Origin: a plasmid
Reading direction: 5' to 3' (one strand)
Length of the DNA: 64,000 bases
Assembly (NCBI RefSeq): GCF_057098645.1
Contig: NZ_JBXSPU010000002.1
In this document: piece by piece, positions 56,001 to 59,000 of the stretch
Layout of the letters: each line of letters starts with the position of its first letter
Numbering within the stretch: position 1 is the first letter of the stretch
Position numbers: made by a program

Positions 56001-59000
56001 CTGTATTTTAATGAGTAAATTTTATTCATGGTTTTGTATATGGCGTTTTCATCACCAGCCTCAAGATCCATTTCGAAGCAATTGTGATGAAAACAGCTCT
56101 GTTATTTATAAATAAAGCTCTCAGCCATAAGAGCCATACACCAATACCAATACCCCATGAAAAACAAAAAATCAACCAGACAAACAGAATGAAAACAAAA
56201 AATAAATCATTTGGTTTTATTCTTTTTATTAAAAACATAAAGTAATGAGAGGTATTCAATGATGCCAGTGTCTGCGATACAGTAAGGACGCTCAAAATTG
56301 GTGTTTGGATCTCCTAACGTTAATATAATCAGTGTGCCTGCTCTAAATAGCTGTGCCGAATACCGCTACACTTTTACCAGCCCATGTTTACCACCGGGGA
56401 ATGGGCTCACGGTTTCCATAAAATAATGAACCTTTTTCAGCTGTTCGCCACCGCTGTAGGAACCCGCGAGTCGAGTCAGCCGGAGAGAATTTCACTCCCT
56501 GGCTGCTCATGGAACCGTACGTGACACTCTCGCGTCATACGGCTCTTGATCACTCATTCGATGCACGTAGTAAATACCAGTGGACAAATAGCTTCGGATA
56601 CTCCTTCCTTACCCGTCAGCTTTCGCTGAGCCTTCCGGTTCGAAAGTCTGTATTTAGACAGCATCCACTTGAGCAGACGTGACTGCATTGCACTCCACAG
56701 TCGATAGTTGAAATTTCTGGACCAGAACTTTCCGTAGTACCCGATCCAGCCTCTCACTATCGCATTGTAGCGCCTCGCAAAATCCAGCAAGCGCTCAGCT
56801 GTTGAGCGATGTATACGCCACTTCTTGATTGTTTCTGTTATTTTGCGCATTGCTGCATTTGACGCACCCGGCATGCATTTTCGGTACAGTTCGCCTTTGA
56901 AATTCTTCAGCGTACGCACTTTGAAGTCATATCCGAGAAAGGTGAAACTCGTTGCGACGTTTCTCCTTTTAAACGTGTCAATGTAGGCGATATTCGTTTT
57001 CCCTGCATTCAGGGCCAGCCCGACTTCCGAGAAGCGCTCCGATAACCTGTTCTTCAGCCTTGTTGCATCACTCATTCGTGAACAATGTACTACAATATCA
57101 TCAGCGTACCTCTCAAACGGTACCCCCCGATATTCTCTTTCCATCCACAAATCAAATGCATAGTGAAGGAACAAGTTAGCAAGTAGCGGACTAATGACCC
57201 CGTCCTGCGGAGTGCCTCGTGTTCGGGTTATTAATTCTCCATTTTCACAACTCTGCATTGGCGCTTCCATCCAGCGTCGACAGTACAGGATGACCCATTT
57301 AGGCATCCCGTGGTGTTCCAGTGCTTTGAGCACCAGATCATGTCTCACATGGTCGAAAAACGCACTGATGTCCACTTCCAGTATCCAGCTATAACGCCAG
57401 CACCGGATGGCACATTGCTTCAGAGCGTCATGAGCTGATTTGCTTGGTCGGTAACCATATGAATCAGCATGGAAAATCGGGGCAAGCTTTTCTTCCATGA
57501 AAAGTTTTATCGCTCCCTGAGCAATTCGATCGGATACTGTTGGGAGCCCCAGAATGCGCTCCTTGCCATTCGACTTCGGGATCCGTTTTTCCAGCACTGG
57601 TGGCGGAAACCATGTTCCCGAACATAGCCGGTTCCAGATCTTGTATAGATTGCCATCACGTTGCTGGTCGAACATTTTCAAAGTCTGTCCGTTGCATCCG
57701 GGGGCTCCCTTGTTGCGACGCACATCCAGATATGATGCCCAGACCAGTGCTTTTGGTATTTCAAATGATTTTCGTTGCATCGGTTACGTCATCCCCTTTT
57801 GGGTTGTGTCTTCTGCAATGAATGTGATCCCCATCCCTTCTCTCCAGACCCATTACAGATTTTTCATCACTACTACGAATGAGTCCGCCCCTGTTTCCCG
57901 ATACGTGCCGGAAACAGGTTCTCACGTTCCCTGAGATGGTCTGGCTCGGGCTCCTGCTGCCTTCACACCGGATGCTGCGCAGTCAGTAAGCAGGTGACTT
58001 CTGCGCTTGTCAGGGGACGGCTCTACGGCCCCATTTTGACATCATCTAAGATTTCGATGCATCATCGGACAGTTTACTTTCGTTCAGCTTCCCGAACCCC
58101 ACGTGACAGTCGATCTCTGCCTTTTCCCGAGTCGCTCACCACCTCATTCCTTAGAATGAAGCAGCACCGGGTCGTTTGGTCAGTGCTCCTGTAAACCCTG
58201 ACCGGAGGGCCCACCTCCACCCACCTCAGAGCATGGATAACTTATGCTGCAATTTTCATATTGTTGCCATAATCCAGTCCCATTCACGTTGTGAGAGCTT
58301 CTCAGCACCAACAGAGAGCAGAACTGTATCAATGCTTTTGCGGGTCAACATAAAGGGATGGGGCGTGCGGCAACAACAGGACTAACGGGGCCGGTTTTCA
58401 ATTTGCAGCCGCCAGGCTGCCGTGGTTCCTTAGGGCGGTGCCCATATTACGAGATAAGATCAAGCAATGAGTTAAGTTATAACAGGGGCCTGAATATATA
58501 GGGGGACAATATCTTGAAAAATATCAGTAAAATTTTAAAAAAAACATGCAAGTATTGATTTTTACAGAGTGGCAATAAAAAATTAATAGAAAACAAACGC
58601 GCATGAAGGTGGTTAATGCTTACATCTAAAAAAGAAATGCAGTGTTCTAAAAATAAACAAGAGGATAATTTAACGTTATTGTTAACCAATTACATTTCAT
58701 ATCAGAATATAGTTATATTTACGGGGGGAATCAGTTTAAGATAAGAAACAAGAAAGAATTCACCGAATACACAACAGGACCAAAATCATTGTTTTTTTTG
58801 GCAAAAAATACTCGCTGGGACATGGAAGTTGTCGGAATCGATAATAGTAATCCGTACAGGAAAATTATAATTGATGATGCATTAATTAAGTTGCTGCATT
58901 CAATATCATCTGATGACTCTTGTTATGTAAAAAAAATATATTTACCGCGGACCTTAATGAAACGCAATTGAATATAGTTTACAATATAATTGAAGATACA

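Follow-up and report, generated by a model that had tools for sequence, protein, structure and literature searches.

A 5′-truncated copy of the group II intron E.c.I3 abutted by an IS91-family fragment on a plasmid

RmInt1 of Sinorhizobium meliloti is a model class D group II intron and homes into ISRm2011-2. Like E.c.I3 of Escherichia coli, it is a class D intron with an IEP that has no endonuclease (En) domain, and its homing into an insertion-sequence gene depends on EBS/IBS pairing. From the intron copy described here RmInt1 differs in sequence, host IS and organism. Class D introns combine an IIB-like RNA with an IEP without the D/En region. E.c.I3 (class D / IIB3) is present at full length in E. 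coli 536 and ED1a, targets specifically IS679, an IS66-family element, and its name is given to introns with >90% nucleotide similarity to the reference intron (PMC3522654). The E. coli 536 copy is known as E.c.I3-2b (NC_008253, 4007952-4009775) and belongs to bacterial class D (PMC3522654 Table S3; Leclercq & Cordaux 2012). In Enterobacteriales, insertion sequences of virulence plasmids serve as carriers of group II introns, which decay in these surroundings (PMC3522654). On Shigella and ETEC virulence plasmids, 5′-truncated E.c.I3 fragments have already been catalogued (PMC3522654 Table S2), among them E.c.I3-tr2 of Shigella plasmids, which is without 37 bp of the intron and 900 bp of IS679 (PMC3522654).

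Here we analysed a 64,000-nucleotide stretch of plasmid DNA, referred to as the window (NCBI RefSeq assembly GCF_057098645.1, contig NZ_JBXSPU010000002.1). A first-pass annotation had described a group II intron at 56466-58440 with an intact RT, and had suggested that it may be mobile and had inserted into an IS91-family element or its target. Our main reading, to which we assign a probability of about 0.9, is that the feature is a decayed, 5′-truncated copy of the known E. coli intron E.c.I3, fused by deletion to an IS91-family fragment and able neither to splice nor to retrohome. The window copy shares with E.c.I3 97-98% identity over its whole retained length, the same domains V and VI, EBS1, the En-less RT/maturase and the 3′ exon, IS679/IS66-family tnpC. 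Unlike E.c.I3, it lacks intron nt 1-19/20 together with the entire 5′ exon, and its 3′ exon is cut to 24-28 nt. It also resembles E.c.I3-tr2 in being a 5′-truncated E.c.I3 on a virulence plasmid that has lost the upstream part of its host IS679. The two differ in the breakpoint (37 bp missing in E.c.I3-tr2 vs 19-20 nt in the window) and in the upstream partner, which in the window is an IS91-family terIS fragment.

Identity and boundaries of the intron copy

A group II intron is identified on the minus strand, far above chance, by Rfam covariance matches together with an RT/maturase ORF (Table 1). The gathering scores are 36 for RF01999 and 40 for RF00029. The order of the matches is right on the minus strand, with the RF01999 segment upstream of the ORF and of domain V. 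The covariance-model check that had been proposed for this locus therefore leaves the intron call standing, and RF00029, RF01999, TIGR04416 and the canonical domain V bear out what was described earlier, a group II intron that has a domain V and encodes an RT/maturase. In the domain VI helix, an A·C mismatch results from a G>A change at 56500 that is specific to the window copy. MFE folding of the full-length intron over its first 595 nt was uninformative on domain I architecture (z -1.45).

Table 1. Coordinates of the intron remnant, its parts and the adjoining fragments in the window
Feature	Coordinates	Strand	Description
Truncated E.c.I3	56470..58272	-	nt 20/21 to 1824 of the 1824-nt element; 1803 nt kept; from alignment to full-length copies and the empty tnpC site
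Conserved domain I segment	58102..58218	-	RF01999 group-II-D1D4-2, 91.9 bits, E 2e-17, full model 1-118
Domains V/VI	56470..56547	-	RF00029, 54.2 bits, E 7e-8
Domain V	56512..56545	-	34-nt canonical hairpin, AGC triad, GAGA tetraloop, 2-nt (AC) bulge; RF04357 D5 match
Domain VI	56470..56510	-	bulged branch-point A at 56476, 7 nt from the 3′ end; last intron base 56470
EBS1 (AGAGCC)	58019..58024	-	intron nt 268-273; from complementarity search on the full-length 536 copy; sequence kept in the window
RT/maturase ORF in domain IV	56554..57780	-	408 uninterrupted codons, ATG start; no D/En domain
terIS (left, upstream-of-tnpA) end fragment, IS91 family	58272..58428	-	157 nt; inverted copy of 46254-46452
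Counterpart left (terIS) end, IS91-family element	46254..46452	+	tnpA from 46571, interrupted by an IS21-family element at ~46971
3′ exon remnant, IS66-family (IS679-type) tnpC, TCGCGGGTTCCTACAGCGGTGGCGAACA	56442..56469	-	24-28 nt; corresponds to intact tnpC directly 3′ of the insertion point
Flank beyond the IS66 remnant	56343..56441		alignment with an ETEC plasmid (L005): just outside the IS66 right end there

Over 1805 aligned columns, the window copy and the E. coli 536 copy share 98.3% identity; with four other copies the values are 95.6-98.1%, and many E. coli and Shigella records contain copies with 97-98% identity to the intron region. These values lie above the >90% similarity used for naming, and we refer to the copy as E.c.I3. 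To fix the boundaries, the window was compared with the copies in E. coli 536, a pINV plasmid and an ETEC plasmid, and with uninterrupted IS66-family tnpC. The empty tnpC site, found by a search with the joined flanks, reads ...AACTGGCTCT/TCGCGGGTTCC..., where the slash marks the insertion point. Occupied copies read ...GGCTCT/GTGTGTCACG...CTCGAC/TCGCGGG, or in a longer reading ...GGCTCT/GUGUGUCACGAAGGAGUACUUAUGGCAAC ... GGCUGACUCGAC/TCGCGGG.... All three full-length copies (E. coli 536, the pINV plasmid and the ETEC plasmid) lie in tnpC at ...CTGGCTCT/TCGCGG... and begin with GUGUGUCACGAAGGAGUACUU. From the comparison of full-length copies and the empty tnpC site, complete E.c.I3 measures 1824 nt and has a canonical GUGUG 5′ end. 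The boundaries that we derived independently for the 536 copy (L002 2982-4805) are the published E.c.I3-2b coordinates, 4007952-4009775.

At the 3′ side, the empty-site comparison fixes the end of the window copy at 56470, where the RF00029 match also ends. At the 5′ side the copy is incomplete. Alignment with five other copies shows that it lacks the first 19-20 nt (GUGUGUCACGAAGGAGUAC) and with them the GUGUG 5′ splice site; no GUGYG splice-site sequence is present. The window junction reads ...GGGACTGGAT/TATGGCAAC..., or over a longer stretch ...GAATGGGACTGGAT/TATGGCAACAATATGAAAATTGC.... Intron sequence starts here at nt 20 or 21 (58272 or 58271), with one T common to both partners. The span given in the first-pass annotation, 56466-58440, thus merged the intron with its flank, and the intron sequence itself runs from 58272 (or 58271) to 56470. 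As GUGYG is missing and the copy starts at nt 20/21 right after IS91 sequence, the locus is an intron remnant and not a complete intron.

The loss extends to the 5′ exon. In the full-length copies, EBS1 forms six Watson-Crick pairs with IBS1 (GGCUCU), the last 6 nt of the natural IS66 tnpC 5′ exon. No 5′ exon carrying IBS1 is found at the window copy, and EBS1-IBS1 pairing with an adjacent 5′ exon is absent, the upstream sequence being ...CTGGAT of IS91, which cannot pair with AGAGCC. The complementarity search of the full-length 536 copy gave no convincing EBS2.

The RT/maturase frame and its decay

The ORF was compared with protein profiles and with solved group II RTs. It matches TIGR04416, the NCBIfam equivalog for the group II intron RT/maturase, with 376.9 bits (cut-off 300 bits) over profile positions 2-352 of 353. 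Pfam RVT_1 covers residues 67-285 (model positions 1-204 of 205) and GIIM residues 311-385, and the ORF aligns to the GsI-IIC RT at residues 19-382. PGAP labels ltrA as "missing N-terminus", even in full-length copies, which disagrees with the near-complete TIGR04416 coverage. The RT motif check found motifs 0-7 and domain X all present and in order, and no motif is missing. The domain search revealed no En domain in the 408-aa ORF; since the IEP is without this domain, the domain content here agrees with class D.

The same ORF has acquired a number of changes. The retained intron of the window shows 22 private differences against the five other copies. Within the ORF the private changes comprise eight non-synonymous (D30N, I79L, D100A, G113S, G193D, V256A, S330R and Q374L) and two synonymous ones. 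D30N lies in GxDG of RT0 and G193D in PQGG of RT4; both are non-conservative and affect conserved residues that GsI-IIC has in common with other group II RTs of solved structure. In addition, a 2-nt deletion at about 56614 frameshifts the last ~21 aa, so that the conserved tail ...LVRKEYPKLFVHWYLLRASNE of the other copies becomes GKEGVSEAICPLVFTTCIE in the window copy. This C-terminal tail is a class-D signature that has been reported to be necessary for maturase function and mobility. The earlier statement that the 408-aa RT ORF is intact can therefore be kept in part: the frame is uninterrupted and open, but it carries the RT0 and RT4 substitutions and a frameshifted C-terminus. We regard the ORF as open but decayed and showing relaxed constraint, and would call it "intact" in a mechanical sense only.

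The suggestion that the intron may be mobile does not hold up. It fails because the 5′ end is missing, despite the presence of motifs 0-7: the 5′ splice site, the first 19-20 nt of domain I and the IBS1 exon are gone, and RT0, RT4 and the C-terminus are damaged. Judged from the sequence, the copy is almost certainly immobile, and both splicing and RT activity would be lost.

Flanking insertion-sequence fragments

Immediately 3′ of the intron, the window retains exactly the 3′ half of the E.c.I3 homing site, the 5′ half of which is deleted. On the ETEC plasmid pTW10828_114.6k, the remainder of tnpC and the IS66 right end (...CGCTTAC) separate the intron from AACAGCTGAAAAAGG..., whereas in the window GGCG/AACAGCTGAAAAAGG stand in direct succession. 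Compared with pTW10828_114.6k, the window has lost ~190 nt, namely the remainder of tnpC and that right end, by a deletion between two AACA motifs. A hairpin-containing repeat in the flank beyond the remnant (56343-56413) is an 85% direct repeat with 60262-60332. We found no empty homing site, no second E.c.I3 copy and no detectable IS66 tnpC within the window. An 8-nt sequence, GACTGGAT, is common to the IS91 breakpoint and to tnpC ~200 nt upstream of the homing site. It was rejected as a recombination site, because the window junction runs on into intron and not into tnpC sequence.

On the 5′ side, the inverted IS91-like duplicate that had been noted earlier is real: the fragment and its counterpart align in two blocks of 96% identity with a 42-nt indel between them (E 3e-45). 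The fragment has diverged from the 46-kb copy and breaks off ~199 nt from the terIS terminus. In the 46-kb copy, ORF 46571-46987 matches the N-terminus of transpos_IS91, and ORFs 47069-48241 and 48238-49038 are IS21 IstA and IstB. Hundreds of IS91-family copies with unrelated flanks place the start of homology at window ~46244-46250, and in many independent copies the homology extends to 46970. The 58-kb piece is matched by IS91-family copies only between 58428-58432 and 58272. A terminal GTTC-type cleavage tetranucleotide and a subterminal palindrome are terIS features of IS1294-type elements (PMC13181058). Both window copies carry GAAC (GTTC on the other strand) and the subterminal palindrome GCAGCC-TGGC-GGCTGC, and the 58-kb fragment thus has both features of a terIS end. 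It contains neither the HUH transposase gene (tnpA) nor an oriIS end, and stops at the equivalent of 46452, 119 nt before tnpA. Seen from the intron, the fragment has its terminus on the far side, where the per promoter region lies; perA-like, perB and perC occupy about 58616-60188 (plus strand).

What meets the intron is the broken inner end of the IS91 fragment (the 46452 equivalent), fused to the broken intron with an overlap of 1 nt. With the IS91 left end at ~46250, the position of the junction partner, 46452, falls inside the IS. Beyond 46452 the intron-less 46-kb copy has GAAAATGCTCAAACC..., a sequence without relation to the 3′ flank of the intron. This copy was tried as an intron-less allele within the window and rejected, as it has no continuation into that flank. 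An IS91-like piece also occurs on the ETEC plasmid pETEC_74, where no E.c.I3 fragment adjoins it. Since neither partner ends at a natural boundary, the junction appears to carry the signature of a deletion or illegitimate recombination rather than of intron homing or IS insertion.

Origin of the junction and distribution

An active E.c.I3 would be transcribed within IS679/IS66-family tnpC and spliced out as a lariat with its own maturase. It would then reverse-splice into the tnpC site ...CUGGCUCU/UCGCGG..., with the pairing of EBS1 (AGAGCC) and IBS1 (GGCUCU) as part of the recognition, and be copied into DNA by the RT. The locus in the window may go back to an IS66-family element with E.c.I3 next to the hairpin-containing repeat, an arrangement still seen on the ETEC plasmid. 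A deletion of ~190 nt would have taken most of the 3′ exon and the IS66 right end. The 5′ splice site, the 5′ exon and all of the 5′ part of IS66 would have gone in a second deletion, which brought intron nt 20/21 up against an interior position of an IS91-family element whose terIS end lay beside the per promoter region. Later point mutations and the 2-nt deletion would finally have damaged the RT. We infer the order and the mechanism of the deletions, as well as the loss of activity, from these comparisons.

Three other origins of the junction were weighed against this history. Direct adjacency of IS91-like sequence to the 5′ side of the intron, the presence of domains V and VI and the open RT ORF are what one would expect of an intact, potentially mobile intron that retrohomed into an IS91-family element or its target, as the first-pass annotation had it. 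However, there is no GUGYG and nt 1-19/20 are missing in comparison with the five other copies; the 5′ flank ends in ...CTGGAT, which is unable to pair with EBS1 AGAGCC; and the RT is frameshifted and has damage in its motifs. What lies on the 3′ side is IS66 tnpC instead of IS91, and the IS91 sequence is joined at an IS-internal point with its terminus pointing away. The proposed comparison with an intron-less IS91 copy also speaks against such an insertion, since the 46-kb copy runs on with GAAAATGCTCAAACC past 46452, unlike the sequence after the intron, and past the breakpoint has no similarity to the intron 3′ flank. We consider this origin extremely unlikely. It is very unlikely, too, that IS91-family transposition made the junction directly, either by insertion into the intron 5′ end or in a one-ended rolling-circle event, even though one-ended events that drag along adjacent DNA are known and the elements are active on such plasmids (PMC13181058), and although the fragment has kept an authentic terIS terminus. 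Insertion joins the target to the oriIS and terIS termini, whereas here the intron is joined ~199 nt inside the IS with the terminus facing away. Moreover, no oriIS or tnpA is left from the 58-kb copy, and a further deletion would be required anyway.

The 5′ truncation could also have arisen during retromobility, if reverse transcription ended ~20 nt before the intron 5′ end was reached and the cDNA was then linked to IS91-derived sequence by joining or template switching. As cDNA synthesis proceeds from 3′ to 5′ of the intron, a 5′ truncation is the expected abortive product; the overlap at the junction is only 1 nt, and the IS91 piece lies in sense orientation relative to the intron strand. 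Against this stands the 3′ exon, which is the normal homing site, where homing would leave IS66 tnpC upstream as well and no IS91 end beside the per region. The IS91 piece ends exactly at a DNA-level IS terminus, and the 3′ side bears an ordinary microhomology deletion, so that plain deletions shaped the locus. The chance of such a truncation seems vanishingly small. In its specific form, a scar of abortive retromobility for which the En-less class D RT exchanged its intron RNA template for an IS91 transcript, it has next to no probability in our view; if true, the scar would represent natural template switching by a group II RT that made a chimeric insertion on a virulence plasmid.

Under the preferred reading, truncation by deletion, both the intron and its type of degradation are known, and the feature is ordinary mobile-element debris. 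It adds one more example to the documented pattern in which introns ride on insertion sequences and decay there, and has little importance beyond correct annotation. The proper label would be a 5′-truncated E.c.I3 remnant that lies in an almost obliterated IS66-family element and borders on an IS91-family terIS fragment; "mobile intron in IS91" is to be avoided.

Nine plasmid records in PLSDB, six of them present in RefSeq as well, carry the same arrangement of IS91 fragment, truncated intron and short tnpC remnant at 99.5-100% identity; their sources are pigs, dogs, humans and wastewater. The open ORF together with 99.5-100% conservation in nine plasmid records could, as a counterpoint, suggest retention; such conservation is equally expected from recent common plasmid ancestry. 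The breakpoints may be useful as markers for tracing the per-carrying plasmid lineage in pigs, dogs and humans. The copy on plasmid pCFSAN029787_01 (L006) is also 5′-truncated and begins at the window equivalent of 58255.

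The second group II intron remnant

Besides E.c.I3, the 5′-truncated intron on the minus strand, the plus strand of the window carries a second group II intron remnant distinct from it. The second remnant starts at approximately position 60335, reads GTGCA..., and is split by an IS66-family fragment. A domain V was not found for this remnant. Similar 5′ parts occur in approximately 1245 of 5426 E. coli genomes. The per operon is flanked by the two intron remnants, which lie in opposite orientations.

Features of the second intron remnant and of insertion sequences in the window
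Feature	Position	Strand	Support
Second intron, 5′ part	60335-60803	+	RF02001, 131 bits; RF01998, 70 bits
IS66-family tnpA/tnpB fragment splitting second intron	within 60804-61695	-	
Second intron, RT C-terminal/maturase fragment (173 aa)	61613-62134	+	TIGR04416 positions 237-353
istA, IS21-family element	47069-48241		
istB, IS21-family element	48238-49038		
ALIL pseudoknot	18763-18879	-	RF01497, ~120 bits
ALIL pseudoknot	22904-23020	-	RF01497, ~120 bits
ALIL pseudoknot	32152-32268	+	RF01497, ~120 bits
ALIL pseudoknot	40655-40771	-	RF01497, ~120 bits

A direct repeat with a strong hairpin (AGCCCAT...ATGGGCT) is present at 56343-56413 and 60262-60332 with 85% identity, and also at 33336-33370. 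A gap of 2-3 nt separates the end of the 60-kb copy from the 5′ end of the second intron, so this intron lies immediately downstream of a stem-loop. Such a placement recalls class C introns, which target terminators. The 56-kb copy represents a version without an intron and is located directly outside the former IS66 right end.

Annotation of the E.c.I3 ltrA gene

PGAP labels the E.c.I3 ltrA gene as a pseudogene "missing N-terminus" in three compared records (L001, L002 and L003), including the full-length copies of E. coli 536 and pINV. Contrary to this label, the ORF of 408-410 aa spans positions 2-352 of TIGR04416, a model 353 positions long. The label probably arose as an artefact from the choice of reference protein.

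Insertion sequences and inverted repeats

The ALIL pseudoknot is a frameshift-stimulating element of IS3-family transposase genes. The four pseudoknots detected in the window are nearly identical, which indicates that one IS3-family element is present there in four copies. The IS91-family element (46250-50077) is split at approximately 46971 by an IS21-family element, an insertion that is missing from the closest plasmid, pCAU16175_2. It is enclosed by inverted repeats of 246 nt with 93% identity (45944-46189 and 50078-50323), which look like IS3-family ends. On a larger scale, a 377-nt inverted repeat (41741-42117 and 62487-62863, 89% complementary), with arms 20 kb apart, encloses the entire IS91, autotransporter, intron and per region. 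In the matching plasmid, PGAP annotates transposase fragments close to the 62-kb arm.
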